From NCBI GenBank assembly GCA_963708075.1, contig OY970194.1:1888001-1952000 (forward strand): a stretch of 64,000 nt of DNA, in the 5' to 3' direction. Source of the DNA: Sedimentisphaerales bacterium (GTDB taxonomy: Bacteria > Planctomycetota > Phycisphaerae > Sedimentisphaerales > Anaerobacaceae). Shown in pieces: positions 25,479 to 48,541 of this stretch. The position numbers and the translations under genes were made by a program. How positions within the stretch are numbered: position 1 is the first letter of the stretch; every line of letters starts with the position of its first letter. The notes beneath the pieces were generated by a model. It ran no database searches. It had not been told where the DNA came from and saw nothing but the letters and a program-made list of their open reading frames with translations.

Positions 25479-26611
25479 CGGATGTCCTCTAACCGCACGA
25501 CTTCGACAGCGGTGCCGTCGGCGAGGTGATGCATGCCGTTGACGACGAGACTCTCACCGGACTGGAGGCCGCTGACAATCTCACACTGCGGGCCGTCCGT
25601 CAGGCCGATTTCCACGATGCGTTTTTTCGCGCATCCGTTCTCCGCCACAAAGACGTACGGCGAGTCGATCTTGCCGCCGAGAATGACATCGCGCGCAATG
25701 ACAACCGCCGTGTCCCTGCGATTGAGGACCAGCTTCACACGGGCGAACATCCCCGGCCGAAGCAGCAGGTCGCCGTTCCGCAGCCGGATTTCCAACCGGA
25801 TGGTGTGGGTCTGCTCGTCAAGAGCCGGATAGATGCAGTAGACCTCCGTCTCGAACACGCGGTCCTTGAATGCATCCACAGCGATCTTTACCGCCATGCC
25901 TTGACAAATCTGCGGCGAGTACCGCTCCGGCACGGCGGCCAGCACTTTCACCGTCTTGATATCGGCAAGGCTGACAATCCGCTGCCCCTGAGCGACCAGG
26001 TTGCCCTCATCGATGTACCGGGTGGTGACGAAGCCGTCGATGGGACAGACGATCGTGGACTCGCGAAGATTGATCTTCGCCAATTCGAGATTCGCCATGG
26101 CGAGGTTCAGGCCCGCCGCCGCCAGTTCAGAGGCTGTCACTGCCTGATCTCTCGCCTGCTCCGTGGCCGAGCCCGCCTCAAATAGTCCGACAATTCGCTT
26201 GCTCTCGCGCTGTGCCTCTGCCAGTTGCACTTGCCTGGCCCTGACCTCGGCTTCCGCGACGGCCACCTGCGCCTGATGCATGTCATGGTCGATCACGGCC
26301 AACTCCTGCCCCTGCGAGACAGGCAGGCCGACATCGACACTCTGGCGGCTCCCATCAGGCATCACCACCGCCAGCGACTCGATCCGGCCGGCGACCTTCG
26401 AGGCGAGCTCCACACGCTTGTTTGCCATGATTACGCCCGTCAGCTCCAACGTCTGCTCGATTGGCGCCATGCTGACAGGTTCGACCTCGATGGGCACGGG
26501 CCGCTCCTCGGCAGGCGCTTCCACGGGCTTGCGCACGTAGCCCCACCAGAACGTGCCCAGCACAATGGCCACAGCCGCGGCCCAGTACAATCCTCGCCTA
26601 ACCATTCTCAT
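25475..26611 (-). CDS. RND periplasmic adaptor (MFP)
   Basis: N-terminal TM, ASKVAGRI, CPIDGFV, LRPGMFARV. Confidence 0.93.
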   Translation of the reverse strand: MRMVRRGLYWAAAVAIVLGTFWWGYVRKPVEAPAEERPVPIEVEPVSMAPIEQTLELTGVIMANKRVELASKVAGRIESLAVVMPDGSRQSVDVGLPVSQGQELAVIDHDMHQAQVAVAEAEVRARQVQLAEAQRESKRIVGLFEAGSATEQARDQAVTASELAAAGLNLAMANLELAKINLRESTIVCPIDGFVTTRYIDEGNLVAQGQRIVSLADIKTVKVLAAVPERYSPQICQGMAVKIAVDAFKDRVFETEVYCIYPALDEQTHTIRLEIRLRNGDLLLRPGMFARVKLVLNRRDTAVVIARDVILGGKIDSPYVFVAENGCAKKRIVEIGLTDGPQCEIVSGLQSGESLVVNGMHHLADGTAVEVVRLEDIR

Positions 26612-28079: not shown

Positions 28080-28128
28080 ATTCCTCCCTGCTTGTCTCTC
28101 ATGGGCTTTCCGCCGCCCCCGCGAAAGT

Positions 28129-29655: not shown

Positions 29656-30326
29656 TATTCTCCCGATTCACTCTGGTACGCGCGGATTCCCGCGGCCGAG
29701 AACTTCACAATGTGCTCCACCATTTCCTCCAGGTCCAGCTTCGGCATTGCTGGATGGCTGCCCTCCTCGAACATGCCTTTGGACAGGACGGTCTGCATGA
29801 GCTGGCCTACAACGGACAGGATCACCAGACGCGCACGCCCCTCCTCCAGCCAGGGACAAATCTGTCGCAGTGCCTGTGCGAACGCGCCCATGACCGGCAC
29901 GATCATCTCGTTGAGAAACATGTCGCGAGGAAGATGCGGATCGACCATCTCTCTGGCCATGAGATTCACGAATCGCTCGCTGCGGCCGCCATCGACCAGC
30001 GGCTCGATGAACGAATTCGCGTAGGACCGCAGAAGGTCCTCCAATTGGGGCCGCCCGCCCCTGGACATGACCTCGGCGATGCTGGCAAGCCGGACATCAC
30101 GCAACTCGGCCAGACGACGACGCCAGACCTCTACGTACAGGTTGTCCTTGCCCCCGAAGTAATAGTTCACCGAGGCGATGTTGCAGTCGGCAATGGCGGC
30201 AATATCGCGGACGCTCGTGTCGTTGAATCCACGCTTGCAGAACAACTCCTCCGCCGCCTCTACCAGCCGGTCCTGCACCCCTCTCTCCGCAGGCCCTCCG
30301 TGCGCGTTATGTCCTGGCGTTGTCAT
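29655..30326 (-). CDS. TetR/AcrR family regulator (CecR-like)
   Basis: LVEAAEELF...SVRDIA...VNYYFGGKDNLY. Confidence 0.92.
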   Translation of the reverse strand: MTTPGHNAHGGPAERGVQDRLVEAAEELFCKRGFNDTSVRDIAAIADCNIASVNYYFGGKDNLYVEVWRRRLAELRDVRLASIAEVMSRGGRPQLEDLLRSYANSFIEPLVDGGRSERFVNLMAREMVDPHLPRDMFLNEMIVPVMGAFAQALRQICPWLEEGRARLVILSVVGQLMQTVLSKGMFEEGSHPAMPKLDLEEMVEHIVKFSAAGIRAYQSESGE

Positions 30327-30339
30327 ACCCTATCTCTCC

Positions 30340-30387
30340 AAACAAACGTTTAATACGCCAGTTTAAAACGCCCGTTTGAAATGTCAA
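30340..30387 (-). promoter_or_regulatory. Promoter with three tandem operator-like boxes upstream of tetR
   Basis: Minus strand TTGACA-16 nt-TAAACT; boxes AAACAAACGTTT, ATACGCCAGTTT, AAACGCCCGTTT at a 13-bp period. Confidence 0.65.
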
Positions 30388-30572
30388 GGGATTTGGGGCG
30401 ACTCAACGAACAAATGTACCCGGCCCGCAAAAAAGCATTCTCCCTGGAACCGCTGCCCGTGAATCCGCCTACCGTTCCGAATGACCGGCAGGCGGACACA
30501 TCACCATAACTCCTGTCACCGGCTGAACATACGTGATTTGAGAATTTGCCGCAAATTGTGTTAAAAACCCCG

Positions 30573-30602
30573 TTGACATAACTGCCCTCCAGACGCTATA
30601 TT
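30573..30602 (+). promoter_or_regulatory. Sigma70 promoter of the tRNA gene
   Basis: TTGACA-18 nt-TATATT. Confidence 0.65.
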
Positions 30603-30620
30603 ACGGTTTTTGCAGAACTC

Positions 30621-30694
30621 GGGGCCGTAGCTCAATTGGCTAGAGCATCGGACTGTCGATCCGAAGGTTGAGGGTTCGAGCCCCTTCGGCCTCG
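30621..30694 (+). tRNA. tRNA-Asp (GTC)
   Basis: Acceptor GGGGCCG/CGGCCTC, D arm TAGCTCAATTGGCTAGAGC, anticodon arm TCGGA-CTGTCGA-TCCGA, T loop GGTTCGAGCC; no encoded CCA. Confidence 0.96.
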
Positions 30695-30794
30695 TTAAGA
30701 AATGCAGTTTTGAGGGTAAGAACGCGGATTATCATTCCGGGTCTTCTCACCAATTCTCATCGTTTCTCACAAATTGCGCCAATATTCTCGACCC

Positions 30795-31241
30795 TCATTT
30801 TCCCTCGGTGCCTGTGGCTCGCAACTTGTTCCTTAGTTTCATCGTTGGCATCTTTGCCACCGCCTCTCTTTTCATGGCCAGCCAGTCGGGGTGGGTGTAG
30901 ATTGCCCCCATCGCCGTCGACTTGTGCCCGAAGATCTGCATAATGATCTGACGGGGGACGCCGCGGCTCTCCAGCCACTCCATCAGCTCCGGCGTCGGCG
31001 GCTGCCCACTCATCCGCCTGGCCTGAAGCGCCTCGACATTGACCGCCCAGATCTCGGCCAGCCGCCTGTCGAGGCACTTCGGCAACGGGATCTTCTGCTC
31101 CCGGCGACCGCGGCGGTCCCTGAAAAAAAGATAGAAGTTCTTTGTGGCATACGAACGACCGCTGCCCCTGGTGTGGTGTTTGCCTACCCTCATAGCGGTA
31201 CGACTCCTATGAGTAAGGACGGCCCACGGTGCAATGTTCAA
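30795..31241 (-). pseudogene. Tyrosine integrase remnant with internal deletion
   Basis: Only an N-terminal segment plus the terminal box GVPRQIIMQIFGHKSTAMGAIYTH in 148 aa; adjacent to the tRNA 3' end. Confidence 0.75.
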
Positions 31242-31551: not shown

Positions 31552-31582
31552 TTGTCACAACTTAATACGTGATTATAATATG
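31552..31582 (+). promoter_or_regulatory. Promoter and ArsR operator-like box
   Basis: TTGTCA-16 nt-TATAAT; AATACGTGATTATAATATG recurs imperfectly at 31986-32004. Confidence 0.55.
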
Positions 31583-31621
31583 TTATAGTCGCACGTGGTT
31601 TCCAGTTAGGTGGATGTGCAT

Positions 31622-31948
31622 ATGGATGCAAATGCAAAGAGATTCTACGAGTTGAAAGCTGAGATCATCCAAGCGGCCGGCCACCCTATCCGGCTGGCCA
31701 TCATTGAATTCCTGAGCCAGGGTGAGCAGTGTGTCTGCGATATTGTCGAGCATGTCGATGCGCAGCGATCCAATGTGTCCAGACACCTGTCCGTCATGCT
31801 GAAGGCCGGGGTGCTGGAGAGCCGCAAAGATGGCCTGAAGGTGATCTATAGGCTCCGTACCCCATGCATCGTCCAGTTCCTAGCATGCGTCGATCAGGCA
31901 TTGCGGGAAAGGATGCAGCGCGAGGCAGCGCTCTTGAGGAAACTCTAG
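31622..31948 (+). CDS. arsR: ArsR/SmtB family regulator
   Basis: HPIRLAII...EQCVCDI...SNVSRHLSVM. Confidence 0.92.
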   Translation: MDANAKRFYELKAEIIQAAGHPIRLAIIEFLSQGEQCVCDIVEHVDAQRSNVSRHLSVMLKAGVLESRKDGLKVIYRLRTPCIVQFLACVDQALRERMQREAALLRKL

Positions 31949-32043
31949 CCAAACTCCAATACGACTGAAGGAATTGTCTGTGACCAATATGTGAGTATTA
32001 CATGGTATAATGGCATACTTGCGTGCCTTTGAGGAATCGTTCG

Positions 32044-32334
32044 ATGAATGCATCTGCAAATCTCTTGAGGTCCCTGGCTGCGATCAGACGCATCCAGATC
32101 CTGGATGCATTGAGAGACGGCTCCAAGAACGTTGGTCAGTTAGTGGCGCGTGATCTTGGGTGTCAGGCCGCTGTATCAACGCATCTGCAAGTCCTGCGTA
32201 GCTGTGGATTGGTCAACCGTGAAAAGGATGGCCAACAAGCAGTCTACAGCATCTCTCCGGCTGTGAAACAACTGTGCGTCGAGTTGGATGCCGTCGCCAG
32301 GTGCGCCCTTGCGAGACAATTGAGCCAACAGTAG
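32044..32334 (+). CDS. ArsR/SmtB family regulator (divergent, lacks the CVC motif)
   Basis: RRIQILDALRDG...QAAVSTHLQVLRSCGLV. Confidence 0.8.
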   Translation: MNASANLLRSLAAIRRIQILDALRDGSKNVGQLVARDLGCQAAVSTHLQVLRSCGLVNREKDGQQAVYSISPAVKQLCVELDAVARCALARQLSQQ

Positions 32335-32428
32335 TGGAAGGCAAGCCACAATATGAATGGGACAGACAAGTGGAAGAACCTGGCAGGTGACGCAAGCAGT
32401 ATCGCGGGAATAGTCAACGGGTAACACT

Positions 32429-32720
32429 GTGGCTGAGTTTTGCATAGGGACGTTTGCGAATCGTGCCGAGTTTGAGAAGGCCAGGACCGTCCTGGACAGT
32501 GTGTCCCTGCCCTATCAACTCATCTCGCCGGAGCCGGTCTTCCGGCATGTGGGCGTTCCTTCGCTCGTTCTGGAGGAAGATATCCACCGACATCAACGCG
32601 ATTATGAGCTTTGGCGTAATGGTGACACCGGCCTTGGCCGTGGATGGCCAGGTGAAGACCGTCGGCAAGGTGCCCTCGCCGGATGAAATCAAGACGATGT
32701 TAGCAGGCCAGCAGGAGTAA
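32429..32720 (+). pseudogene. Chimeric remnant: N-terminus of an unknown gene joined out of frame to the C-terminal half of an ArsE/MTH895-like thioredoxin
   Basis: TDINAIMSFGVMVTPALAVDGQVKTVGKVPSPDEIK matches the C-half of 34218..34451 but lacks the GCxxC N-half. Confidence 0.7.
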
Positions 32721-32726
32721 CGGTTC

Positions 32727-34204
32727 ATGGATGTAGTGGATTTGTTGATGAGACTGCTTCAAGGAGGGCTCGGCAACCTGGCTGCCTATCTGGCCGCGCA
32801 CGTTCTGCTGTGCCTGGTGCCCGCCTTCTTTATCGCAGGTGCCATGACGGCTCTGATTCCCAAGAACACGGTGACCCATTTCCTGGGCGCACCACCCCCA
32901 AGTACCAGTCCTACCCTGCGGCGGCACTGGCTGGGTCCGTACTGGCCGTCTGCTCGTGTACCATCGTCCCTATCTTTGCAGGGATCTACAAGAAGGGCGC
33001 CGGCATAGGACCAGCGATCACCTTTTTGTTCTTTGCACCGGCGGCGAATATCCTCGCCCTGGTGTACACCGGCGGGATCATTGGACCCGATCTGGCATTT
33101 GCGCGGCTGTTTCTGTCCCTGGCCTTCGGTATTGGCATCGGCATGATCATGGCCCTGATCTTCAGCCGGGAGGATGCTACCCATGACGAGACGACGGGCG
33201 CCATGTTCGCTGGAGAGGGCCACATGCACCGCGCGGCGATGTTTCTGCTGCTGGTGCTCGTGGTACTGCTATTGTCCGGCACTCTCAAGATTGGCCTGCT
33301 GACCGGCACCTATGGCCAAGTTACTGTGCCCATTCCCGGAACGGACCGCCTTGAGGCCGCTTTGCAGCGTCTGGTGCCCTTTGACGCCAGTAAGGGCGAG
33401 GAGGGGGTGACCGTCCAAGGAGCATTCCTGCTGGTCCTGCTGGTCCTGATTGGCATCACGGCATGGAAAGGTCTGGAAGACGTCTCGGAACGGTTCATCG
33501 GTTGGACTTGGGCGGCACTGGGGTTGGTCCTGCTGACACTGATCACGGCCTCCGTCGGGATGAAACCCCATGAGGGCGGACTGGACATCCAACTCACCGG
33601 CAAGTCGGTGGGCGTGGTACTGAGTCTTGCGGTCCTCTTTTACCTGGCTCGCTATCGGCTCCAGAGAGAGCAACTGCGGGAATGGCTTGCAGAGTCCTGG
33701 CGGTTCGTCAAGCAGATCTTCCCGCTGCTGGTCGTGGGCGTATTTGCCGTCGGTGTCATCCGGCAGATCATCCGGCCGGAGTGGATCGAGTCCCTCGCGG
33801 GACGCAATTCCCTGCTCGGGAATGTGGCTGGCGTGGTATTCGGCGTGTTCATGTACTTCCCCACACTGGTCGAGGTGCCCGTGGCCAACATGTTTTTGAG
33901 CCTGGGCATGCACCGAGGTCCGTTGCTCGCCTACTTGATGGCCGACCCCGAACTGAGCCTGCAGAGCATCCTTATCGTCTCAGCGATCATTGGGCGGCTC
34001 AAGACATGGACCTACGTCGGATGGGTCGCCGTGTTCAGCACGCTGGCGGGCCTGATCTACGGGGCCTGGGTAGATGGTGCGCATGTCGGGATGATCGTCT
34101 TATATCTGACGCTGTCACTGGGTGCTCTGGCGTCTGGATTGTATCTGATCGGCAAACGAGTTCGTCGCGAGATGATTCCATTGCCCAGTAAAGTCGAGAA
34201 CTAG
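32727..34204 (+). pseudogene. ArsP/DUF318 family permease with a -1 frameshift near 32888 (pseudogene or sequencing error)
   Basis: AAHVLLCLVPAFFIAGA in one frame; LAVCSCTIVPIFAGIYKKGAG and FMYFPTLVEVP in the next. Confidence 0.82.
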
Positions 34205-34217: not shown

Positions 34218-34451
34218 ATGAAGACACTGCAAATCCTGGGCACGGGATGCCCGAAGTGCAAGAAGCTGGCAGAGAACGCACAAGCCGCCACCAAGGAGGC
34301 GGACATCGAGTGCCAGATTGTCAAGGTGACCGATATCAATGAGATCATGAAGTTCGGTGTGATGATTACTCCGGCGCTGGTGATTGATGGCCAGGTCAAG
34401 GTCGTCGGCAAGGTGCCCTCGCCGGATGAGATCAAGAAAATGCTGGCATAA
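34218..34451 (+). CDS. Small thioredoxin-like protein (MTH895/ArsE family)
   Basis: ILGTGCPKCKKL...GVMITPALVIDG. Confidence 0.9.
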   Translation: MKTLQILGTGCPKCKKLAENAQAATKEADIECQIVKVTDINEIMKFGVMITPALVIDGQVKVVGKVPSPDEIKKMLA

Positions 34452-34484
34452 GCAGTGCCGGACAAGAGGCAGAAAGGACAAGAG

Positions 34485-34862
34485 ATGAGCAATCAGCAAT
34501 CCTGTGGGTGCAGTGGTGGACCGAAACTGATCTTTGCGTGCAGCGGTGCCGCGGATGTAGGGGAAATTGCCGACAGGGCCGCAAGGAAGTTGACCCGCGA
34601 CGGGGTGGGCCGTATGTTCTGTACAGTCGGACTTGGCGGGCGGATCAGCGGCATTCTCAAGACCACGGAAGCGGCTGATAGCGTTCTTGCCATTGACGGC
34701 TGTCCGCTGAACTGTGTCAAGTCCAGCCTGGAGCAGGCGGGGTTCACGGCCTTTAAGCATCTGCAACTGGCCGACCTGGGGCTGGAGAAATGCAAGAGCC
34801 CGGCGACGGACGAGAGCGTCAGCAAAGTGGCGGCACGGGCGGCAGAAATGATCGGCTCATAG
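34485..34862 (+). CDS. DGC domain putative zinc-binding protein
   Basis: FACSGAADVG, IDGCPLNC. Confidence 0.9.
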   Translation: MSNQQSCGCSGGPKLIFACSGAADVGEIADRAARKLTRDGVGRMFCTVGLGGRISGILKTTEAADSVLAIDGCPLNCVKSSLEQAGFTAFKHLQLADLGLEKCKSPATDESVSKVAARAAEMIGS

Positions 34863-34874: not shown

Positions 34875-35369
34875 ATGACCATTCGATGCTTTCTCATGCT
34901 GGCAGCGTGCCTGTCCTGTCTGGGCTGTCGGGCAGTAGACCCCTCAAATCCCAAAGCTCCTGCCCCATCGTCAGCGGGAGATCCGCCAGTGACGCAGGCT
35001 CAGGTGCAATCTCCTGCCGGCCCTACCGTGGTGTACGCCTATTATTTCCACCGAACCTTTCGCTGCGTTTCGTGTCTTTCGATGGAGGAGATGGCCGCTC
35101 GCACGATTGAGGAGCACTTCGCTCGGCAGGTACGGAACGGGCAGGTGGTTTGGACAACCATAAACATCGAAGACCCGGCGACTGCGCCTCTCCGGCAGCA
35201 GCTCGATGTACGAAGCAACGGACTGGTGCTGGTCCGGATGGAAGACGGTGTATACAAGGGCTCGAAGCCACTGGATTCACTGTGGGGACTTCTGGACCGG
35301 CCGGAGGCTTTCTCAAAGTACGTGGTCGATGAGGTCAATGCGTTCCTGGTCGCGGGGAACAAGAGGTGA
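34875..35369 (+). CDS. ArsF-like exported thioredoxin-fold lipoprotein
   Basis: Lipoprotein signal; YYFHRTFRCVSC motif. Confidence 0.75.
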   Translation: MTIRCFLMLAACLSCLGCRAVDPSNPKAPAPSSAGDPPVTQAQVQSPAGPTVVYAYYFHRTFRCVSCLSMEEMAARTIEEHFARQVRNGQVVWTTINIEDPATAPLRQQLDVRSNGLVLVRMEDGVYKGSKPLDSLWGLLDRPEAFSKYVVDEVNAFLVAGNKR

Positions 35370-35496: not shown

Positions 35497-36783
35497 ATGA
35501 CTAAGGCGTTGAAGATCGTGGTGGTCGCGGCTCTGATCCTATCCGTGGCAGCCATCGTGCAGATCAAGCAGCGGGGCAAGCAGACAGATGCCGTGCAGGG
35601 CCTAGCCACACCAGCCGTCGCCGCTGAACCAACGGCCTCGGGCCTGCCTCGCCTGGTGGACCTGGGTGCGGATAAATGTATCCCATGCAAGATGATGGCC
35701 CCAGTCCTCGAAGAACTGAGGGAGCAATACAAAGGCCGGCTGGACGTGGTCTTTCTGGATGTGTGGAAGAATCCCAACGTCAGCAAGCAGTACGGCATCC
35801 AGGTGATCCCGACACAGATCTTTTATGACGCCACGGGCAAAGAGCGGTTCCGGCATGAGGGTTTCTTCTCGAAGGACGACATCTTGGCCAAGTGGAGAGA
35901 GCTTGGTGTCGATCTATCGAGCGGCGCTGCGCAGACACCGGCGTTCGAGCAGCTCACACCTGCCAAGCCTGACGAACGCCCGAAGGAAAGCATCTGCTAC
36001 ATGTGTGACGGCGGCATGAATCCGAGGACTCTCGTGACCGTTCAGACGGATAAAGGTCCAGTCAGATTGTGCAGCCCCCACTGCTACTGGATCATGTATT
36101 CCTGCCTCACCGAGGACAAGACCGGTTTCGAGAAGAAAGTCACGGTCACTGACTGGGTCACAGGCAAGCCAATTCCGCTTTCCGAAGCCGCCTTTCTGTA
36201 CGGTGAGGACGAAGCGACAGGCAAGCCGTGGATCAAGGCTTTTGCCGGCCGGGATGCCGCCGTCGCGGAGCGAGCCGCCAGTGGCGGCAGTGTCCTGGCC
36301 CTTGCCGCACTCCAGGAGAAGGAATTGTCGCATCGCTGCGGGTTCTGTGAGCGTGCGTGCTATCCGCAAGATGCCTCTGAAGTGATCGTTGAAGGCGGGG
36401 TGCATACCTGGGGTTGCTGCTCCCACTGCGCCTTGGGCGTGGCCGCTCGGACCGGCAAGAATATCGAGGTACGTGAAAAGGACCGCCTGACAAAGCAGGC
36501 GATTGTGGTCAAGACGCTCGATGGCAAAGTCGCCTCGCTGGAACCGGCCACAGCGGTCGCATGGTTCGGCCAACGAAGAAAGCCCGACGGCGCCTGGGCA
36601 TCCGCCGGGTGCTTCCACCAGGGCTTCTTCACCGGCGTAGACAATCTCAAGAAGTGGGTCGAGCTGAACCCCTACGAGACGGGCCGGCTCATCAGTATCA
36701 GCCAGGCGCTGGCCGACAAGATGAAACTGTCGCCTGAGCAAATCCAGAAGGCATGCAAGATCGGCGAATGTGCACCAAAGTAA
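35497..36783 (+). CDS. Membrane-anchored thioredoxin fused to NosL-like and MerB-like Cys-rich domains (alternative in-frame start at 35374)
   Basis: DLGADKCIPCKMM; CYMC...CSPHC...VTDWVTGKPI...AFAGRDAA...GGSVL; HTWGCCSHC...LEPATAVAWF...GCFHQGFF...KKW. Confidence 0.72.
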   Translation: MTKALKIVVVAALILSVAAIVQIKQRGKQTDAVQGLATPAVAAEPTASGLPRLVDLGADKCIPCKMMAPVLEELREQYKGRLDVVFLDVWKNPNVSKQYGIQVIPTQIFYDATGKERFRHEGFFSKDDILAKWRELGVDLSSGAAQTPAFEQLTPAKPDERPKESICYMCDGGMNPRTLVTVQTDKGPVRLCSPHCYWIMYSCLTEDKTGFEKKVTVTDWVTGKPIPLSEAAFLYGEDEATGKPWIKAFAGRDAAVAERAASGGSVLALAALQEKELSHRCGFCERACYPQDASEVIVEGGVHTWGCCSHCALGVAARTGKNIEVREKDRLTKQAIVVKTLDGKVASLEPATAVAWFGQRRKPDGAWASAGCFHQGFFTGVDNLKKWVELNPYETGRLISISQALADKMKLSPEQIQKACKIGECAPK

Positions 36784-36789: not shown

Positions 36790-37767
36790 ATGGATTCGTA
36801 TATGAAGGGTACAACCATGATGACAAGAAGCGTTCTTCCAACAATCATCGTGCTGTTCGGAATATCCACCCTTCCTGTTTGGGCGAATGAATCGCCGGCG
36901 GCGCCAGTCGATGTCCAGGAGAAGCCGTCCCTGGTCCGGGATGTCTATCCGGGTCTGGCGTCAAACAGTCTGACTTACGCGACGCTGTCCGACCTGCCCT
37001 CTGGGGTGCTCCTGAAGGCCGAGGGTGTCACTGTCACAGACAAAGATGTCACTGACCAGATCGCGAAAGTGCCGCAGGAGATGCAGGCCCAACTCAAGAA
37101 AAACGCCTTTTTCATGCTGGAGAACCTGGCGACACGTCAGCTCCTGATCGCTCTGGCCAAGGCGAAGATACCTGAGCCAAACGCTACGGCCTCTTCTGAC
37201 GAGAAGCAGATGATCCAGACGTACCTCAAGGGGCTGGTCGCCAACGTGCAGGCCAGTGACGCGGAAGTGACCAGGTTCTACGAGGAGAACAAGGACGCCT
37301 GCGGCGGCGCAACCCTGGACCAGGTGAAGGACCAGTTGAAACAGCTCGTCGTCCAGCAGAAACAACAGGACCTCGTGGATGAGCACGTCCGCACGCTGGG
37401 GCAGCGCATATCCATCGAGATTTCCGCATCCTGGACGAAGGAACAGGCGGTGCTGGCCAAAGACAATCCCGTGGACAAGGCCCGGTCCAGCGGCAAGCCC
37501 TCGCTGGTGGATTTCGGCTCCACCGGTTGCCGGCCGTGTGACATGCTTGCTCCAATCCTGGAGACGCTGCAGACGAAATACGCCGGCAAGGTGAACGTGC
37601 TATTCATTCACGTCGGCCAGGAGCAGATCCTGGCCGCCAGGTACGGCATCCAGACAATCCCGACGCAGTTCTTCTACGATAAGGACGGCAAGGAGACATT
37701 CCGTCACGTCGGGTTCTGGCCGCAGGCCGAGATTGAAAAGAAGCTGGCGGAAATGGGGGTCAAATAG
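36790..37767 (+). CDS. Exported thioredoxin with SurA-like helical N-terminal region
   Basis: Signal peptide; DFGSTGCRPCDML...IPTQFFYD. Confidence 0.8.
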   Translation: MDSYMKGTTMMTRSVLPTIIVLFGISTLPVWANESPAAPVDVQEKPSLVRDVYPGLASNSLTYATLSDLPSGVLLKAEGVTVTDKDVTDQIAKVPQEMQAQLKKNAFFMLENLATRQLLIALAKAKIPEPNATASSDEKQMIQTYLKGLVANVQASDAEVTRFYEENKDACGGATLDQVKDQLKQLVVQQKQQDLVDEHVRTLGQRISIEISASWTKEQAVLAKDNPVDKARSSGKPSLVDFGSTGCRPCDMLAPILETLQTKYAGKVNVLFIHVGQEQILAARYGIQTIPTQFFYDKDGKETFRHVGFWPQAEIEKKLAEMGVK

Positions 37768-37770: not shown

Positions 37771-38469
37771 GTGGAAAAGCTGTTCACAACGTTGACGCAC
37801 GCCGTCGAGGGCACGCCGGCAATTGCCCTGACGGCTGCCTTCGTATGGGGCATTCTCAGCATTCTGCTGAGTCCGTGTCACCTGTCCAGCATCCCGCTGA
37901 TTGTCGGATTCATTGACAAACAGGGCCAGATGTCCACGAAGCGGACGTTCGCCATTTCCGCGCTCTTTGCGGGCGGGATCCTGATTACGATTGCGGCCGT
38001 GGGCGCTGTCACGGCCGCCGCCGGCCGGATGATGGGCGATGTCGGACGCTACGGCAATTACTTCGTTGCCGCTATCTTCTTTCTCGTGGGCCTGTACCTG
38101 CTGGACATCATCACTTTGCCCTGGTCAGGTCCGGGCCAGATCGGCATGAAGCGAAAGGGTATGCTGGCCGCGTTCGTCCTCGGCCTGGTCTTCGGTATTG
38201 CCATCGGCCCCTGCACATTCGCCTACATGGCCCCGATGCTCGCTGTCACGTTCCGCGTGGCCTCGACCGCCCTGGCCTACGGGATCGCCCTGCTCGTCGC
38301 CTACGGCGTTGGCCATTGCTCGGTCATTGTCGTCGCCGGCACCAGCACGGGATGGGTGCAACGCTATCTCAACTGGAATGAGAAATCCAAAGGGGCTGTC
38401 ATTCTCAAGAGAATCTGCGGCGTCCTGGTCCTGCTCGCCGGCCTGTATCTGATCTACATCGCGCCTTAA
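37771..38469 (+). CDS. CcdA/DsbD-family transmembrane electron transporter (ArsG-related)
   Basis: GILSILLSPCHL and GPCTFAY Cys motifs, about 6 TM helices. Confidence 0.85.
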   Translation: MEKLFTTLTHAVEGTPAIALTAAFVWGILSILLSPCHLSSIPLIVGFIDKQGQMSTKRTFAISALFAGGILITIAAVGAVTAAAGRMMGDVGRYGNYFVAAIFFLVGLYLLDIITLPWSGPGQIGMKRKGMLAAFVLGLVFGIAIGPCTFAYMAPMLAVTFRVASTALAYGIALLVAYGVGHCSVIVVAGTSTGWVQRYLNWNEKSKGAVILKRICGVLVLLAGLYLIYIAP

Positions 38470-38523: not shown

Positions 38524-38819
38524 ATGAATCGAAGGGAATTCCTGACAACCACACTGGCAGCGGGCACAACGGGATCGTCGCCGTCGGTGCCGCCCGCAAC
38601 GGCGGCCAGGAGCTGGCGATTCGATCCGTACAGGCAGCGCTGCTGTGCCAGGAGATGATCATCGTCGGCGACGGTCAGCCCACGGCCCATTTCGGAGCCA
38701 CGCTGGTCAACGATGGCAAGGACAGTATCGCGGGCGACGAAGTCGGCGTTTCCACAGCCAAGAACCTCGGCCGGCACATTGCCGAAGTCGCTCTCAAGCC
38801 GGCGCGGACTGGCGGTTGA
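38524..38819 (+). pseudogene. Tat-signal flavodoxin/iron-sulfur flavoprotein remnant with internal deletion
   Basis: MNRREFLTTTLAAG joined out of frame to AVGAARNGGQE...HFGATL...TAKNLGRHIAE-stop. Confidence 0.7.
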
Positions 38820-38839: not shown

Positions 38840-38887
38840 TTGACATAGGACTCCTGCTTCAGTATAATTCGTCAAATGGCGAAATAT
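38840..38887 (+). promoter_or_regulatory. Consensus sigma70 promoter and ArsR operator-like inverted repeat
   Basis: TTGACA-17 nt-TATAAT, followed by TTCGTCAAATGGCGAA. Confidence 0.8.
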
Positions 38888-38892: not shown

Positions 38893-39264
38893 ATGCCTAT
38901 GCGTGAAATTCTCGACGTAACCAAGGCTCTGGCGGATGGAAACCGGCTCCGCGTGCTGATGGCACTGGCGGGCGGCGAGTTGTGCGTCTGTCAGATCGTG
39001 GAGTTGCTGCACTTGGCCCCTTCGACAACATCCAAGCACATGTCTATCCTGCGACAGGCTCGGCTGGTGGAAAGCCGCAAGGACGGCCGCTGGATGTACT
39101 ACCGGCTGCCGGATCGTGATGCCCCGAAGGCGGTCAAAGGCGCCGTGGCATGGGTGCGGCGCCATCTCGCCGAATCGCCCCGGATCGTGCAGGACCGGAA
39201 AGAGCTTAAGAGAATTCTCAGCATGGACCCGGAGGAAATATGCAAGGGACAGTGCAAAAGATGA
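38893..39264 (+). CDS. arsR: ArsR family regulator
   Basis: KALADGNRLRVL...ELCVCQI...STTSKHMSIL. Confidence 0.93.
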   Translation: MPMREILDVTKALADGNRLRVLMALAGGELCVCQIVELLHLAPSTTSKHMSILRQARLVESRKDGRWMYYRLPDRDAPKAVKGAVAWVRRHLAESPRIVQDRKELKRILSMDPEEICKGQCKR

Positions 39265-39692
39265 AGGTGCTGTTCCTGTGCACGGGCAACTCCTGCCGGA
39301 GCCAGATGGCCGAGGGCTGGGCCCGGCAGCTCAAGGGCGACGTGATTGAGCCCTATTCGGCCGGCGTCGAGCCGCACGGCCTCGATCCCAAGGCCGTCCA
39401 GGTCATGGCTGAGGCCGGCGTGGACATTTCACGCCAGCATGCCAAGCACGTTGACGAGGTCATGGACGTTCCATTCGACTATGTCGTGACCGTCTGCGAT
39501 GACGCACACGAGCGATGCCCGTTTTTTCCGGGCAACGCCAGGATTGTGCATGTCAGTTTCGAAGACCCGCCCCAATTGGTCAAAGCGGCAAAAAGTGATG
39601 AAGAGGCCTTGAACGCCTATCGACGCGTCAGAGACGAGATCAAGGCGTTCGTAGAAACCCTGCCGGAGGGGTTGTCGGAGTCGAAGCACTGA
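39261..39692 (+). CDS. arsC: Thioredoxin-dependent arsenate reductase (LMW-PTP fold)
   Basis: FLCTGNSCRSQMAEG, VTVCD...CP, FEDP. Confidence 0.94.
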   Translation: MKVLFLCTGNSCRSQMAEGWARQLKGDVIEPYSAGVEPHGLDPKAVQVMAEAGVDISRQHAKHVDEVMDVPFDYVVTVCDDAHERCPFFPGNARIVHVSFEDPPQLVKAAKSDEEALNAYRRVRDEIKAFVETLPEGLSESKH

Positions 39693-39723: not shown

Positions 39724-40719
39724 GTGGAATCATCCATAGGCACCGTCAGTACAATTTGGACTTGGGCGGATCGGCTGGGAGCCGTAGCAGTTCGCTGCAA
39801 CATTGGCCGGATGCACTACAGCATTGCGCCGGGTCTGTATGCTGTGAACGAACCGGGGCCGGATGCTCCCGTGTTTGTTTCGGCAAACTACAAGCTCTCG
39901 TTTGGCCATCTCCGCCGTGCCCTCAACGGCATTTCCGGATGGATACTCGTGCTCGACACCAAGGGGATCAATGTCTGGTGCGCCGCTGGCAAGGGGACCT
40001 TTGGCACGGTCGAGCTGGTGCAGCGAATTGGGGCCGTGAACCTGGCCAAACGGGTCTCTCATCGAACTGTCATTGTCCCTCAGTTGGGTGCTCCTGGGGT
40101 GGCAGCGCACGAGGTGCACAGGCAGACCGGCTTTCGGGTGGTGTATGGTCCTGTTCGGGCTAAGGACATTCCGGGATTCCTGCGTGGTGGGATGAAAGCG
40201 GATGCCGACATGCGGAGGGTGCAGTTCCGGCTCGCTGACCGCCTCGCGGTCGCCCCCGTGGAATTGATCCTCTCAGCCAAGCATGCGTCGATCGTGGCGG
40301 CCGCTTTCGCAGTTTTGGCCGGGTGGCGCGGCGGCGGCTGGGCCTGGGAGACCTTCCAAACACAAGGAGCGGTCGCAGCCGCATCGGTCCTGGGAGGATA
40401 TATCTTCGCCGGAATCGCTGTTCCCGGCTTGCTGCCCTGGCTCCCCGGGCGGGCTTTCAGCATCAAAGGGGCGTTTGGGGGCCTGCTGGCGTGGCTATTG
40501 CTCTGGGCACTGGGACCGTACACGCAGGCTATTGATCTGGCGGCCTGGCTGATCCTGCTGTGTACGATGGCGTCTTTCATGGGATTGAATTTCACCGGTG
40601 CCTCGACCTATACGTCGCTATCCGGCGTCAAGAAAGAGACGCGTATCGCCATCCCGATAATGGTCGTCGGCCTGTTGGCCGCTCTGGGTCTGTGGATACG
40701 GGCGTGTGGCATCCTTTGA
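39724..40719 (+). CDS. hgcA: Mercury methylation corrinoid protein HgcA
   Basis: Cap-helix motif GINVWCAAGKGTFG, SANYKLSF, PQLGAPGV, YGPVRA, TM tail with NFTGASTYTSLSGVKKE. Confidence 0.95.
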   Translation: MESSIGTVSTIWTWADRLGAVAVRCNIGRMHYSIAPGLYAVNEPGPDAPVFVSANYKLSFGHLRRALNGISGWILVLDTKGINVWCAAGKGTFGTVELVQRIGAVNLAKRVSHRTVIVPQLGAPGVAAHEVHRQTGFRVVYGPVRAKDIPGFLRGGMKADADMRRVQFRLADRLAVAPVELILSAKHASIVAAAFAVLAGWRGGGWAWETFQTQGAVAAASVLGGYIFAGIAVPGLLPWLPGRAFSIKGAFGGLLAWLLLWALGPYTQAIDLAAWLILLCTMASFMGLNFTGASTYTSLSGVKKETRIAIPIMVVGLLAALGLWIRACGIL

Positions 40720-40729
40720 GAGGTGGAAC

Positions 40730-41029
40730 ATGAGCATGTACTTGAAGAATGTGGTGACTCTTGGGCTTGACGCGGACAAATGCATCGGCTGCGGCATGTG
40801 CGCCCAGGTATGCCCGCACGCTGTCTTTGCCATCCATGAGGGCAAGGCCCGGATTGGAGATCGGGATGCCTGTATGGAGTGCGGGGCCTGCGCCAAGAAT
40901 TGCCCGGTCGGAGCCATCTCCGTCCAAGCCGGCGTTGGCTGCGCCCAGGCCGTTCTTCATAGCTGGACCAAAAGCAAGGATGGCTGTTGCTGCGAGGGTG
41001 CTTCCTGCTGTGGACGGTCCGAGTCATAA
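40730..41029 (+). CDS. hgcB: Mercury methylation ferredoxin HgcB
   Basis: CIGCGMC...CP and CMECGAC...CP, GVGCA, Cys-rich tail GCCC...SCC; directly after hgcA. Confidence 0.95.
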   Translation: MSMYLKNVVTLGLDADKCIGCGMCAQVCPHAVFAIHEGKARIGDRDACMECGACAKNCPVGAISVQAGVGCAQAVLHSWTKSKDGCCCEGASCCGRSES

Positions 41030-41087: not shown

Positions 41088-41369
41088 ATGGATGATAAGA
41101 CCAGAGAATTGATCGCCATCGGAGCGTCCATCACAGCCCATTGCCAGCCCTGTCTGACCTATCACCTGGGTAAGGCTAGGGAGCTGGGGATAGACGAACA
41201 GGAGATCCGGGAGGCCGTCGCCGTTGGCCAGAAGGTTGAGAAAGGATCCATGTCCGCGATGCGGGATTTCACACAACAGTCCCTCGATTCGCTGGCGCAG
41301 GACCCTCAGAATAATTCCGCGCCTTGTACCGGCAAGACACAGCCGAATGGAAAGAGTTGTTGTTCGTGA
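41088..41369 (+). CDS. Carboxymuconolactone decarboxylase/AhpD-like protein
   Basis: ELIAIGASITAHCQPCLTYH; CC tail. Confidence 0.85.
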   Translation: MDDKTRELIAIGASITAHCQPCLTYHLGKARELGIDEQEIREAVAVGQKVEKGSMSAMRDFTQQSLDSLAQDPQNNSAPCTGKTQPNGKSCCS

Positions 41370-42087: not shown

Positions 42088-42788
42088 ATGCTCAAGGCAA
42101 TTACGGACGCACTTCAAGCCGCCAGTATGGGGCCGGCAGCGTTGCCGCTGGCTTTTCTCCTGGGATTGGTCAGCGCGGTCGCCAGTGCCTGCTGCACTTT
42201 GCCGGCGATGGGCATGCTCGTAGCCTACTCGGGCACGCGGGAAAACACCAACCGGCGAATGGCATTCACGTCGGCGATCTGGTTCCTGATCGGAACCACA
42301 GTGGCGCTGATCGTACTGGGGCTTGTCGCCGGTTTCGTCGGCCAGACGGCACAGGCGTTTCTTGGACGATACTGGAAGATATTCGCGGGAGCCGTCGCAG
42401 TCCTTCTGGGGCTGGCGACTCTCAAGTTGCTTCCCATCCGTCTGCCGAAACGCATTCAGAAGAATGGTAACCCCTCCGCGTACGGCGCAAAATGGGCGCA
42501 GCGCTCGGAGGGTTGTTTCTTGGCGGCGGCGTGGCAGCGTGCTCGCTGCCCTGCAATCCGGGGATCTTCATTGTGCTCGGCGCCAGTGTGTTGCTGGGCC
42601 GGGTCATGTGGGGCATGGTGCTCATGGCGGCGTTTGCCGTCGGTTTCAGCCTGCCGCTCAGTGCCATTCTCTTCGGCGTCTCATTTGGCAAGGCATCCAT
42701 CAAGATGCAGAAGGTTGACGCGGTGATCCGAACTGTCGCCGGTGTCCTGCTGGCTGGCGCGGGCCTGTATTTGTTGGCGTCATTTTGA
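42088..42788 (+). pseudogene. Second CcdA-like membrane protein, frameshifted in an A-run near 42490
   Basis: SACCTLP in one frame and CSLPCNP in the next; one extra A restores the ORF. Confidence 0.75.
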
Positions 42789-42807
42789 CAAAAAAGGAAC
42801 ATGGAAG

Positions 42808-43137
42808 ATGACAAAACTGGTGGAAGTGTTCGATCCGCCCATGTGCTGCTCCAGTGGCGTGTGCGGCCCGAAGGTGGATAAGAGACTCGTACAGTTCAGC
42901 GCCGCACTGGAGTGGCTGCGCGGTCAGGGCGTTCAGGTGCAGCGATACAACCCGACCCAGCAATATGAAGCATTTGTCAATAACGCCACAGTCGTCAACA
43001 CGATCAACACACACGGCACGGAATGCCTTCCCCTGATCCTGGTGGATGGACAGATCGTCAGCTATGGCGGCTATCCCAGCAAAGAGGACCTCGCCGTGAT
43101 GGCCGGCGTTGAAAGTCAGAGGAAGGCGGAAGCGTGA
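42808..43137 (+). CDS. arsD: Arsenite metallochaperone ArsD
   Basis: FDPPMCCSSGVCGP, LPLILVDG...YPS. Confidence 0.95.
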   Translation: MTKLVEVFDPPMCCSSGVCGPKVDKRLVQFSAALEWLRGQGVQVQRYNPTQQYEAFVNNATVVNTINTHGTECLPLILVDGQIVSYGGYPSKEDLAVMAGVESQRKAEA

Positions 43138-44966
43138 CAAGACAGACCAACCATTTTGAGGCGTTTGTACGCGCTGCCCCCCGCTTTCTGTTCTTCACCG
43201 GCAAAGGCGGCGTCGGCAAGACCACTCTATCCTGTGCCACGGCCGTGGCCCTGGCGGACAGTGGACGCCGCGTGCTGCTGATCAGCACGGACCCCGCGTC
43301 GAACCTGAACGAAGTACTGGGTGCAGAACTGTCCTCAAAACCCGTTCGGTTGGAATCGGTGCATGGGCTGTGGGCCTTGAACATAGACCCCCAGACAGCG
43401 GCCCGCGAGTACCGCGAACGCATGGTCGCTCCCTATCGCGGCGTGCTGCCGCCTGCGGCGGTCGCCGGGATTGAAGAGCAATTGTCCGGCGCCTGCACGA
43501 CCGAGATCGCCGCGTTCAACGAGTTCTCTCGTTTCATTGGCCAGCCGCAGGCCACAGCGAACTATGACCACGTCGTATTCGACACGGCGCCAACCGGTCA
43601 TACCCTTCGTCTGCTCCAACTGCCGGCGGCATGGAACCAGTACCTCGACACCAACACGAGTGGGACCTCCTGCCTGGGACCGCTTTCGGGTCTTCGCGAG
43701 CAGCATGCCCTCTACGCCAGGGCGCTGCAATGCCTGTCCGATTCGGCGAAAACTCAGGTGGCATTAGTCAGTCGCCCCGAGCGTTCCGCGCTGGCCGAAG
43801 CGGAGCGTACGCGATCCGAGCTGGGCGCGCTGGGTCTGAGTAACATTCGGCTCTTACTGAATGGACTATTCGATAACAGTGACAGCGACCCAGTTGCCCT
43901 GGCTATGGCCTCACGCCAGCGACAAGCCCTATCCGGTATGCCAGAGGGCCTGCGGCCACTCGCGCGCACGGAGGTTCCCCTGCTGCCATTCAATGTGACT
44001 GGACTTTCCGCCGTCCGGGCTGTGACCGATCCCGCGTGTTCGGCCGTCGCAGAGGCAAGGGGAAAAGAAACCCGGTCTTTCGCCGGTTGGCCATCGCTAT
44101 CCGCACTGGTCCGTGAGATCGAGGCCGATGGTCACGGCGTCATCCTCGCGATGGGTAAAGGGGGCGTCGGCAAGACAACTATAGCATCGGCCATCGCGGT
44201 CGAACTGGCCTCTCGTGGTCATCGTGTGCATCTGACCACCACCGATCCCGCGGCCCACATCGAACATGCGCTTGGAGAATCCGTGGCGAATCTGGAGACC
44301 AGCAGGATCGATCCGAGAGTTGAGATCGCCGCCTACACCCAGGAAGTCATGGCGTCTACGAGCGCGGACCTCGATGAGGAGGGCCGCAGGCTGCTGGAGG
44401 AGGACCTGCGATCCCCCTGCACCGAGGAGATTGCGGTATTCAGGGCCTTTGCCGCCAAGGTGGACAAGGGCCGGGATGGTTTCGTCGTTCTGGATACCGC
44501 CCCGACCGGGCATACGCTTTTGCTTCTCGATGCCACGGAGGCTTACCACCGCGAGGTGTCACGCACGCAAAGTGATCTGCCCGAGGCGGTCCGGCATCTG
44601 CTGCCGCGTCTGCGAGATCCTGTCTTCAGCAAGGTGATCCTCGTGACCCTGCCGGAGGCGACGCCCGTTCATGAGGCTGCGCAACTGCAGGAAGATCTCC
44701 AGCGTGCAGGGATACGCCCCTTCGCCTGGATCATCAATCAGAGCCTCAGTCCACTTGCCCTGGCCCACCCCCTGCTCAAGGCCAGACGAGCCAATGAGCA
44801 GCGGTTCATTGAAGAGGTCCGGCAGCACACGGACCGCCTGGCGGTCGTGCCCTGGCTGTCCCGAGAGCCAACAGGGGTAGAGGGATTGCGGCGATTGACC
44901 AGTGACTTGCGTGAACTGGATCCTTCCAGACAGACAAGACAGGAGATGCCCCGTGCCAGGATATGA
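43134..44966 (+). CDS. arsA: Arsenical pump-driving ATPase
   Basis: Two GKGGVGKT P-loops, two DTAPTGHT motifs, Cys in GACTTE, SCLGP, SPCTEE. Confidence 0.96.
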   Translation: MTRQTNHFEAFVRAAPRFLFFTGKGGVGKTTLSCATAVALADSGRRVLLISTDPASNLNEVLGAELSSKPVRLESVHGLWALNIDPQTAAREYRERMVAPYRGVLPPAAVAGIEEQLSGACTTEIAAFNEFSRFIGQPQATANYDHVVFDTAPTGHTLRLLQLPAAWNQYLDTNTSGTSCLGPLSGLREQHALYARALQCLSDSAKTQVALVSRPERSALAEAERTRSELGALGLSNIRLLLNGLFDNSDSDPVALAMASRQRQALSGMPEGLRPLARTEVPLLPFNVTGLSAVRAVTDPACSAVAEARGKETRSFAGWPSLSALVREIEADGHGVILAMGKGGVGKTTIASAIAVELASRGHRVHLTTTDPAAHIEHALGESVANLETSRIDPRVEIAAYTQEVMASTSADLDEEGRRLLEEDLRSPCTEEIAVFRAFAAKVDKGRDGFVVLDTAPTGHTLLLLDATEAYHREVSRTQSDLPEAVRHLLPRLRDPVFSKVILVTLPEATPVHEAAQLQEDLQRAGIRPFAWIINQSLSPLALAHPLLKARRANEQRFIEEVRQHTDRLAVVPWLSREPTGVEGLRRLTSDLRELDPSRQTRQEMPRARI

Positions 44967-45165
44967 CTTCGAATGTCAGGCTTGCCACAAATCATTTGAG
45001 ATTCAGGTGACATTTGCCGAGTACTCGGCCCAGATGAGTGAACACAAGATCGCGTGCCCCACGTGCGGATCGAACAAGGTGGTGCGTGTGTTCAGCCCGC
45101 CGAGCATCCGCTCCAGTTCCTCTCCCCGGTCCGGCGGTTGTTGCCCGGGCGGCAGTTGCGGATGA
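44953..45165 (+). CDS. FmdB-family zinc ribbon protein
   Basis: PGYDFECQAC...CPTCGS; GCCPGGSC tail. Confidence 0.85.
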   Translation: MPGYDFECQACHKSFEIQVTFAEYSAQMSEHKIACPTCGSNKVVRVFSPPSIRSSSSPRSGGCCPGGSCG

Positions 45166-45334
45166 ATGAGCCGTCATGTGCACAGGGGACTCCTGGCGGA
45201 GCCAAAAACCGGGCATGGTGCTGCAAGAGCGATTGCAGGGAAAACTTATCCGCCGTATTGGGCGTATGTAAGATGACTACAGGTGTTTCCTTCCTCTGGA
45301 CGTTCCGCGAAGTTTTTGTGACGGGAGTTTGTGT

Positions 45335-46468
45335 ATGAGCGATGGAATCGCAAAGAGACTTTCATTTCTGGACCGCTTTCTGACGTTGTGGATTTTCCTG
45401 GCGATGGCCATTGGAGTGGCGCTGGGGTATTTTGCGCCGGGCGTTGGCAACTGGATCGGCTCGCTGCGGCCGGAAGGGACGCAGACCAGTATCCCCATCG
45501 CCATTGGGCTGATCCTGATGATGTATCCGCCTTTGGCCAAGGTCAAGTACGAGGAATTGGGCGACGTCTTTCGTAACTGGCGTGTGCTGGGCTTGAGTCT
45601 GGTGCAGAACTGGATCGTCGGCCCGATACTGATGTTTGCCCTGGCCGTGCTGTTCCTGCGCGGCCGGCCGGAGTTCATGATCGGCCTGATCATGATCGGC
45701 CTGGCCCGCTGTATCGCCATGGTCATCGTCTGGAACGATCTGGCCAAGGGAGACACAGAATACGCGGCCGGTCTGGTTGCCTTCAACTCCATCTTCCAGG
45801 TGCTCTTCTACAGCATTTATGCCTGGGTATTCATCACGGTGTTACCGCCGATGCTCGGTCTGTCGGGAGCGGTGGTTAGTATCACCGTCGGCCAGATCGC
45901 CCAGAGCGTCTTCATCTATCTGGGCATCCCGTTCCTCGCCGGAATGATCACTCGCTTCGTACTGGTCAAGGCCAAGGGCAAAGAGTGGTATCACGGCCGC
46001 TTCATTCCCAAGATCAGTCCGATCACGCTCATCGCGCTACTGTTCACCATTGTGGTCATGTTCTCCATGCAGGGCCAGAAGATCATCGACAAGCCGGGGG
46101 ATGTGGTGCTGATCGCCATTCCTCTGCTGATCTACTTCGTGGTCATGTTCCTGGCAAGCTTCTGGATGAGCAAGAAGGCCGGGGCCAACTACGCCAAATC
46201 GGCCACGCTGTCCTTCACCGCCGCCAGCAACAATTTCGAGTTGGCCATCGCGGTCGCGGTGGGCGTGTTCGGTATCAACCATGGTGCGGCGTTTGCCGCC
46301 GTCATCGGTCCGCTGGTCGAAGTGCCTGCACTTATCGGACTGGTGAATGTGAGCCTGTGGCTCAAGGGCAAATGGTTCGCAACCGACCCGGCCGAGTTGG
46401 AGAAGGTCGGCGGCTGCACCACCGGCCGGCCCGCGACGGTAACATCTGCTGAGATTCCTGAATCATAG
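45335..46468 (+). CDS. acr3: ACR3 family arsenite efflux transporter
   Basis: [46 protein letters not shown]. Confidence 0.96.
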
Positions 46469-47378: not shown

Positions 47379-47582
47379 AGCCACCTCGCTGGATATGATC
47401 GCACATTTGCGGCTGTGACCGGTCTGCTCGTGCCTGCGCGAGGTCAATAGGAGTTGGTTGTGCACGGCGAAATCTGCTATAATGGGAATGTATGGCAAGA
47501 GTGAACAGCAGATCATGCCGGTTCGCGGCTCGTGTTCCAACCCACGATTGGATACAGGTGGTTTCTCGATGCGGAGGTGATT

Positions 47583-47855: not shown

Positions 47856-47864
47856 GAATCGAAG

Positions 47865-48527: not shown

Positions 48528-48541
48528 CAAAGGGAGGTTAC

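Follow-up and report, generated by a model that had tools for sequence, protein, structure and literature searches.

A thioredoxin–NosL–MerB-fold protein with a cysteine-only MerB-type site, encoded in arsenic operons of planctomycetes

Here we describe a conserved and uncharacterised protein of 428 amino acids from arsenic operons, whose gene is real and whose MerB-type site is unusual in being built from cysteines only. It is encoded in the genome of a Sedimentisphaerales bacterium, within the window (the whole stretch of 64,000 nucleotides that was analysed), and it consists of an anchor, a thioredoxin domain, a NosL fold and a MerB catalytic fold. Based on sequence, gene neighbourhood and predicted structure, we propose that the protein is exported and acts on trivalent (methyl)arsenic as a thiol trap or chaperone, which CcdA supplies with electrons and whose site is shaped in advance by zinc; we give this reading a probability of about one half.

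Domain architecture and predicted structure

The gene is a single open frame with a GGAG ribosome site upstream. The protein and its parts are located as follows.

35497..36783, + strand: 428-aa anchor–thioredoxin–NosL–MerB-fold protein (P0001; open reading frame, Pfam, AlphaFold2 models)
35509..35565, + strand: N-terminal hydrophobic anchor or signal, residues 5–23 (117 of the 118 homologues scored)
35632..35913, + strand: thioredoxin domain with C61-I-P-C64 (Pfam PF00085; AlphaFold model)
35977..36324, + strand: NosL-fold domain, with C167/C170/C192/C196 as predicted Zn site (structure and profile alignment)
36325..36750, + strand: MerB-catalytic-fold domain, with the treble-clef set C281/C284/C307/C311 (structure and sequence/profile alignment)
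36751..36780, + strand: C-terminal tail with C420 and C425 (120 of the 120 close homologues listed)

Residues 5–23 are the sole hydrophobic stretch of the protein; two basic residues precede it and three follow, so that the membrane topology is not clear-cut. In the Pfam profile search, the thioredoxin domain matches PF00085 at 51.6 bits, and its motif is CIPC or CVPC in 118 of 119 homologues. Residues 297–405 match the MerB family PF03243 at 58.8 bits (cut-off 27). The NosL-fold domain alone has no Pfam NosL match, whereas homologues do match (P0139 at 24.0 and P0163 at 33.5 bits).

The AlphaFold2 model of the protein, which is based on an alignment of 114 sequences, has a mean pLDDT of 88.6 and a pTM of 0.77, with low confidence at the very end of the C-terminal tail. 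When comparing the full model to known structures, we find that residues 161–276 align to NosL 7og7 (Z 12.4, rmsd 2.5, 109 aligned) and residues 277–418 to MerB2 5c17 (Z 12.5, rmsd 3.3, 132 aligned). A second, two-domain model (residues 160–428) recovers MerB2 5c17 (Z 12.6) and NosL 7og7 (Z 12.3, rmsd 2.5, 109 aligned), then MerB 3f2g (Z 11.7) and apo-NosL (6.7), followed by unrelated chains at 4.3 or below. Foldseek detects the MerB fold of the C-terminal domain with E 2.6e-8.

Cysteine sites in the NosL and MerB folds

In sequence and profile alignments, C308-S-H-C311 aligns to MerB C96-A-L-D99 without a gap. The two cysteines with which MerB binds mercury are thus both kept, with C308 at Cys96 and C372 at Cys159, whereas C311 stands at Asp99 and D329 at Cys117. 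The motif reads CCSHC in 75 of the 79 locus proteins and CCPHC in one, and it is unread in three; none of the 76 with the motif read has an Asp at the Asp99 position. All site cysteines are invariant in the 120 close homologues listed, and C281, C284, C307 and C311 are invariant in 23 of 23 diverse homologues.

The two Cys-rich domains are homologous to each other according to hhalign (probability 95.5, E 1.4e-8), with C167/C170/C192/C196 corresponding to C281/C284/C307/C311; pairwise BLAST between the NosL-fold and MerB-fold domains found no match, whereas the profile comparison did. As in TRASH/treble-clef zinc fingers (L24e, YHS), both domains contain CxxC...CxxxC, and weak L24e matches are found in the Cys-rich domains (E 0.004). 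Unlike in these fingers, the clef is here embedded in full NosL and MerB folds. According to an earlier proposal, MerB and NosL descend from duplicated TRASH/treble clefs and lost zinc binding (PMC4999995); the 428-aa protein retains all four clef cysteines, which are gone from MerB.

The middle domain resembles NosL (7og7; PF05573) in its fold (Z 12.3), in its N-terminal CxxC and zinc-site spacing and, presumably, in its exported location. The NosL zinc positions Cys59, Cys88 and Asp92 are occupied in the alignment by C167, C192 and C196, so that the fourth zinc ligand position is a Cys instead of an Asp. Zinc pre-forms the cargo site of NosL (PMC8457098). Of the NosL copper ligands, Cys62 is kept as C170, whereas Met64 is replaced by G172 and the M145 loop contains no Met. 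As the copper Met ligands are absent, the protein is not a NosL; it is also not a lipoprotein and has no nos context.

In the simplest reading of these positions, zinc would occupy two sites, and C308 and C372 would remain as a free pair at the place of mercury in MerB. We infer this split between zinc site and cargo site, as C311 falls on the position of Asp99 as well as on that of the fourth zinc ligand. Without zinc, C308, C311 and C372 would form a three-thiol site.

An earlier note, made from the sequence alone, had read an anchor, a CIPC thioredoxin and NosL-like and MerB-like modules in this gene. The hydrophobic stretch, the PF00085 and PF03243 matches and the comparison of the AlphaFold models to MerB and NosL, which the note had proposed, bear this out, as both folds match. 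The suspected replacement of the aspartate in the MerB WCxxD motif is also confirmed by the gap-free alignment. The CGFC and CCSHC cysteines, which had been regarded as extra, are present and can now be described as a repeat of the four-Cys motif of the NosL domain. Lastly, the architecture had been called uncharacterised, and we found no description of a thioredoxin–NosL–MerB architecture in the literature searched, which consisted mostly of openly available papers.

The arsenic island and its relatives

To describe the neighbourhood of the gene, we use a scan of GTDB that resulted in 317 matching stretches, of which the best 80 were analysed as related loci. The window contains an arsenic island with two predicted operons, and counts in the list refer to these 80 loci.

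31552..31579, + strand: promoter-like site upstream of arsR1, TTGTCA-16-TATAAT, where operon 1 is predicted to start (11/12 consensus)
31610..31948, + strand: ArsR/SmtB regulator arsR1 (profile matches; arsR in 56/80)
32727..34204, + strand: ArsP-family permease, frame split near 32884 (PF03773, 191.7 bits)
34218..34451, + strand: small cytoplasmic ArsE/MTH895-type thioredoxin with CPKC (TIGR00412, 111 vs cut-off 62; 71/80)
34455..34862, + strand: DGC-domain protein (PF08859; 43/80)
34875..35369, + strand: ArsF-family protein with lipoprotein-like signal and CxxC (NF040494, 85 vs cut-off 60; 23/80)
36790..37767, + strand: second exported thioredoxin with CRPC and a chaperone-like N-terminal region (profile and sequence; 45/80)
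37771..38469, + strand: CcdA/DsbD transmembrane protein (PF02683; ArsG-family NF040495 at 52 vs 200, below cut-off; 74/80)
38571..38804, + strand: remaining 3' part of a twin-arginine flavodoxin-like gene, which relatives have in full (residues 145–221 only; matches in 49/80)
38840..38868, + strand: promoter-like site, TTGACA-17-TATAAT, where operon 2 is predicted to start (12/12 consensus)
38893..39692, + strand: arsR3 and arsC, thioredoxin-type arsenate reductase-like (profile matches)
39724..41029, + strand: hgcA and hgcB, at the position taken by arsM in relatives (NCBIfam)
41088..41369, + strand: stand-alone AhpD/CMD protein, similar to the end of the ArsM-AhpD fusion found in relatives (NF041537 positions 276–330)
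42742..46468, + strand: arsD, arsA and acr3 (all above NCBIfam cut-offs)

The 5' half of operon 1 matches the arsR-arsP-arsE-DGC operon of strain ND132, which is induced by arsenic (10.1101/2022.10.17.512643). Frameshifts are found in arsP near 32884 (a one-base gap) and in a second ccdA at 42488, and contigs of two public runs carry one more base at each position. As these contigs do not share the gaps, the frameshifts are likely assembly errors, and we rejected decay of the island as their explanation. An insert between arsR1 and arsP (31950–32730) contains another ArsR-like gene together with an incomplete second copy of the small thioredoxin. Further loci in the window are an RND efflux operon under TetR control, with genes for two outer-membrane factors, and an integrase fragment, directly upstream of the ars island (22386–31241), a type VII-like secretion locus in this planctomycete with a WXG100 protein and an FtsK/EssC-like ATPase (47532–52765), and genes that, by eye from their N-termini, resemble the large and small subunits of a [NiFe]-hydrogenase (60394–62782).

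Among the at least 120 homologues listed, the identity ranges from 69 to 100%, and the named ones belong to Phycisphaerae/Planctomycetota. Some are already labelled 'organomercurial lyase' in databases. In addition to the counts given in the list, arsP is found in 61, acr3 in 40, arsM in 33 and arsC in 32 of the 80 related loci; these counts are not independent, since the 80 were selected as the best of 317, are mostly kin and in many cases lie on short contigs. For the 30 long loci, defined by at least 8 kb on both sides of the gene, we find the arsE-like gene in 30, ccdA in 29, arsP in 27, acr3 in 22, arsM in 21 and arsC in 19. At least one of arsC, acr3 and arsM is present in 26 of these long loci, and none of the three occurs within 10 kb in the remaining four. 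Furthermore, all seven full-length matches from elsewhere in the phylum have an arsE-like neighbour within 1.5 kb. The conserved order is arsR-arsP-arsE-like-DGC-(arsF-like)-gene-thioredoxin-ccdA.

Strict dependence of the gene on arsM was rejected. When considering 300 other genomes of the class Phycisphaerae, an arsM match (E 1e-60) is found in 14 of the 24 genomes that carry the gene, compared to 122 of the 300 overall, and 10 of the 24 lack it, which amounts to a weak association only. In the genome studied here, neither a second copy nor a canonical merB was found, as there is a single PF03243 match.

Two thioredoxin-less NosL–MerB relatives precede an LolE/FtsX-type permease and not ars genes. 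The two-domain core thus predates its association with arsenic and is not arsenic-specific by descent. These relatives (L081:5622-8061; L082:7902-10674) lie opposite clusters of genes for pilin-like and Cys-rich small proteins. A further NosL-like combination is found in four loci (L083, L084, L088 and L090, near 7300–8400), where probable helix-turn-helix regulators (by eye, DeoR-like) carry a Cys-rich NosL-like domain with two CC motifs; these fusions are possible metal sensors.

The same genome contains a second ars locus without a MerB-fold gene (G000:C1:146619-151250), in the order arsR, arsP, arsE-like, DGC, ccdA fragment, arsR, arsC fragment and arsM-ahpD. An MtrA-like corrinoid protein (e.g. 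L017:2828-3562; NF002126, 174.5 vs cut-off 161) is encoded inside six of the 80 ars operons (L017, L008, L038, L039, L050 and L062), twice directly before arsM. Cobalamin methyl carriers, MtrA-like there and HgcA here, thus seem to have joined such ars operons more than once, which gives a lead for anaerobic arsenic methyl transfer.

The neighbouring hgcAB genes

Both hgcA (398.6 vs cut-off 275) and hgcB (124.7 vs 99) are genuine according to NCBIfam, and hgcA starts 2940 bp downstream of the 428-aa gene. Contigs of the public runs span the arsC–hgcA and hgcA–hgcB–AhpD junctions, so that the arrangement is not a misassembly. The genes arsR3-arsC-hgcAB stand behind their own predicted promoter (38840–38868), separate from the operon of the 428-aa gene. 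After arsC, we find hgcAB here and arsM in 19 of the 27 related loci with sequence beyond arsC. It looks as if one methyl-transfer module, arsM, was swapped for another, hgcAB, under an ArsR promoter. The start codon of hgcA is a GTG behind a GAGGA site, and its product lacks the extension, Cys-Sec or Cys-Cys, that most HgcA proteins are reported to carry at the N-terminus.

We tested for a link between the 428-aa gene and hgcAB on loci and on whole genomes and found none. In the best 80 of the 317 related loci, hgcA is absent throughout, and the five weak ferredoxin matches among them (E 1e-4 to 1e-3) have no hgcA beside them. Of the 300 other Phycisphaerae-class genomes, 24 contain the gene and six contain hgcA above the cut-off, but none contains both; as about 0.5 shared genomes are expected by chance, this shows no enrichment, though it is a weak test with little power. 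None of the six hgcA loci carries the 428-aa gene (one of them is only 2.7 kb long), and ars genes are nearby at two of the six. Co-location of hgcAB with ars genes has already been reported (10.1101/2022.10.17.512643). No merA is found above the cut-off in the genome, which is 92.8% complete; the best match (251.5 vs 454 bits) is a lipoamide-dehydrogenase-like protein without the C-terminal Cys pair.

Considering the absence of hgcA from all 80 loci, the position in the arsM slot and the separate promoters, the distance of about 3 kb is best read as a local insertion of hgcAB into an arsenic island. A mercury methylation–demethylation island is not supported. A methylmercury lyase or carrier that partners HgcAB could be argued from the MerB fold, from hgcAB at 2.9 kb in this genome and from the Cys-rich site, which will bind mercury chemically. 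In view of the distribution of hgcA over loci and genomes, the separate predicted promoters, the lack of a merA above the cut-off and the loss of Asp99, we regard such a function as very improbable.

Thus, the expectations of the earlier note about this region have fared differently. The distance of about 3 kb to hgcAB is correct, and, beyond the lack of merA that it noticed in the window, the 92.8%-complete genome has no merA above the cut-off. The co-occurrence that it asked about is found for ars genes but not for hgcAB. An exported organometal lyase or carrier for methyl-Hg or methyl-As had been suggested; its arsenic or metal-carrier option is supported, whereas the mercury option is not, and a lyase is disfavoured by the loss of Asp99. 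The idea of methylating and possibly demethylating functions in one island is, as far as mercury is concerned, not supported by the loci, the genomes and the promoters.

Comparison to known systems

When comparing the C-terminal domain to MerB and MerB2 (3f0o, 1s6l, 5c17; PF03243), we find the same catalytic-domain fold (Z 11.7–12.6), both cysteines Cys96 and Cys159 (C308 and C372) and a Pfam score above the cut-off. Unlike MerB, the protein has a Cys at Asp99 and an Asp (D329) at Cys117, has no N-terminal helix-turn-helix domain (no PF12324 match), adds the treble-clef cysteines, anchor, thioredoxin and NosL domain, and lies in an ars context without merA instead of a mer operon. It also scores far below the NCBIfam MerB cut-offs (21.1 vs 200 and 20.7 vs 193). 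We therefore rejected an assignment as MerB, given the residues at Asp99 and Cys117, the missing N-terminal domain, the NCBIfam scores and the lack of a mer context. In its accessible text, a survey of MerB-like variants names only the 99Ser and 117alt classes (PMC8261052).

SaoL of the SAO system (NF040728) is similarly MerB-like and occurs in anaerobes; its gene context comprises an ArsP-family exporter and a small thioredoxin but no merA-type resistance genes. Nevertheless, the 428-aa protein is not a SaoL. SaoL is described as a cytosolic MerB-like selenoprotein that keeps Cys, Asp and Sec at the three positions (10.1101/2022.07.06.499078), whereas the 428-aa protein is anchored, has its Asp replaced and contains no selenocysteine; NF040728 does not match it at E 0.01.

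The neighbours arsR, arsP, arsE-like, DGC, arsF-like and ccdA are shared with ArsEFG-type or CcdA–thioredoxin ars modules (PMC2963123; arsR5-arsP-arsE-DGC of ND132). The accessible descriptions of these modules, which we compared via NCBIfam family names and PMC9144182, include no NosL/MerB-fold protein, and the ArsG-family score here is far below the cut-off (52 vs 200). CcdA and thioredoxins in ars operons were noted in 2010, without a clear function in the accessible part of that account (PMC2963123). The 428-aa protein may work like a NosL/MerB-fold metal-binding protein that is attached to an ArsEFG-like or CcdA-type module.

Proposed function and alternatives

We propose that the N-terminal anchor holds the 428-aa protein on the outer face of the inner membrane. 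The protein and two of its neighbours carry export-type N-termini, which would supply the missing outside acceptors for CcdA. Electrons could pass from the cytoplasmic ArsE-type thioredoxin via CcdA to the CIPC thioredoxin of the protein. As in NosL, zinc at C167/C170/C192/C196 and C281/C284/C307/C311 would shape both domains. The C308/C372 dithiol, at the place of the two mercury-binding cysteines of MerB, may then capture an arsenical that is exported by ArsP or Acr3, and the CIPC thioredoxin, perhaps with the C420/C425 tail, could re-reduce or unload this site. ArsP is a methylarsenite exporter (10.64898/2026.08.27.747368). With Cys in place of Asp99, binding rather than cleavage of the carbon–metalloid bond is predicted. 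Binding is the likelier activity because Asp99 is essential in MerB and a natural D99S MerB2 does not degrade methylmercury (PMC10114901); the D99S mutant of MerB binds Cu(II) (PMC10114901). Here, the topology of export, the binding of zinc and of arsenic and the flow of electrons are all predicted from sequences and models.

Alternatively, the protein could be a thioredoxin-recycled redox or repair enzyme in which C308/C372 cycles between dithiol and disulfide. Such an enzyme might strip arsenic from damaged periplasmic proteins or re-reduce them, or it might reduce an organoarsenical, as is said of ArsE/ArsF. Periplasmic reductases such as PilB/MsrAB are recycled by a fused thioredoxin and CcdA, and a thioredoxin fusion adjoining CcdA is the layout that we observe. 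The ArsE-, ArsF- and weak ArsG-family matches that flank the gene and the twin-arginine flavodoxin-like gene of the related loci agree with this as well. Nevertheless, CcdA and thioredoxin would be equally required merely to hold a binding site reduced, and the literature surveyed reports no NosL/MerB-fold protein as a reductase; we thus consider a redox or repair enzyme possible but rather unlikely. A general envelope chaperone for Cu, Zn or another soft metal, which rides along with ArsR-controlled stress operons, would agree with the NosL fold, with the thioredoxin-less relatives beside LolE/FtsX-type permeases and with the ArsP-like permease, which also matches the SO_0444 Cu/Zn efflux family, albeit below the cut-off. 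This appears improbable, since both copper Met positions of NosL are substituted, specific arsenic genes are found in 26 of the 30 long loci and the genome has no Pfam NosL match.

An oxygen-independent C–As lyase would use the same pocket differently, with C308, C311 and C372 holding MAs(III) or aryl-arsenite, protonolysis of the C–As bond and a reset of the site by thioredoxin. The C–As bond is harder to protonolyse than the C–Hg bond, which speaks against such a reaction, as do the absence of the proton donor Asp99 from all proteins read at this position and the probable role of C311 as a zinc ligand. H374 and H310 are conserved in close homologues, which would suit a lyase, but both vary in distant ones. 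The MerB catalytic fold with both catalytic cysteines kept and the arsP and arsM context are in its favour. Furthermore, three-thiol model compounds protonolyse alkylmercury (Melnick and Parkin, cited in PMC10114901). ArsI depends on oxygen, and demethylation under anaerobic conditions is not well resolved, although the same source assigns it to methanogen methyltransferases (10.64898/2026.08.27.747368). Overall, we judge cleavage by this protein to be improbable as well, and we favour the trap or chaperone for trivalent arsenicals.

Implications

Some homologues are labelled as organomercurial lyases, and Pfam-based counts of merB in hgcA-bearing communities may thus be inflated by an arsenic-linked family. 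As the zinc-finger cysteines presumably lost from MerB persist in this family, it also tests the proposed origin of MerB. It is a highly conserved candidate, predicted to be soluble and well folded, for addressing both binding and lyase activity. If, as we doubt, anaerobic planctomycetes demethylate methylarsenite in their periplasm by a MerB-fold enzyme with a cysteine-only site and a built-in CcdA-fed thioredoxin, this enzyme would be the equivalent of ArsI for anaerobes and would represent an extant intermediate that links TRASH zinc fingers, NosL and MerB. A MerB/NosL-fold protein that binds toxic arsenic compounds outside the cytoplasm would show a candidate job for the fold. Both the protection of the envelope of anaerobes from methylarsenite and oxygen-free C–As cleavage would be relevant to the speciation of arsenic in sediments and in rice paddies.
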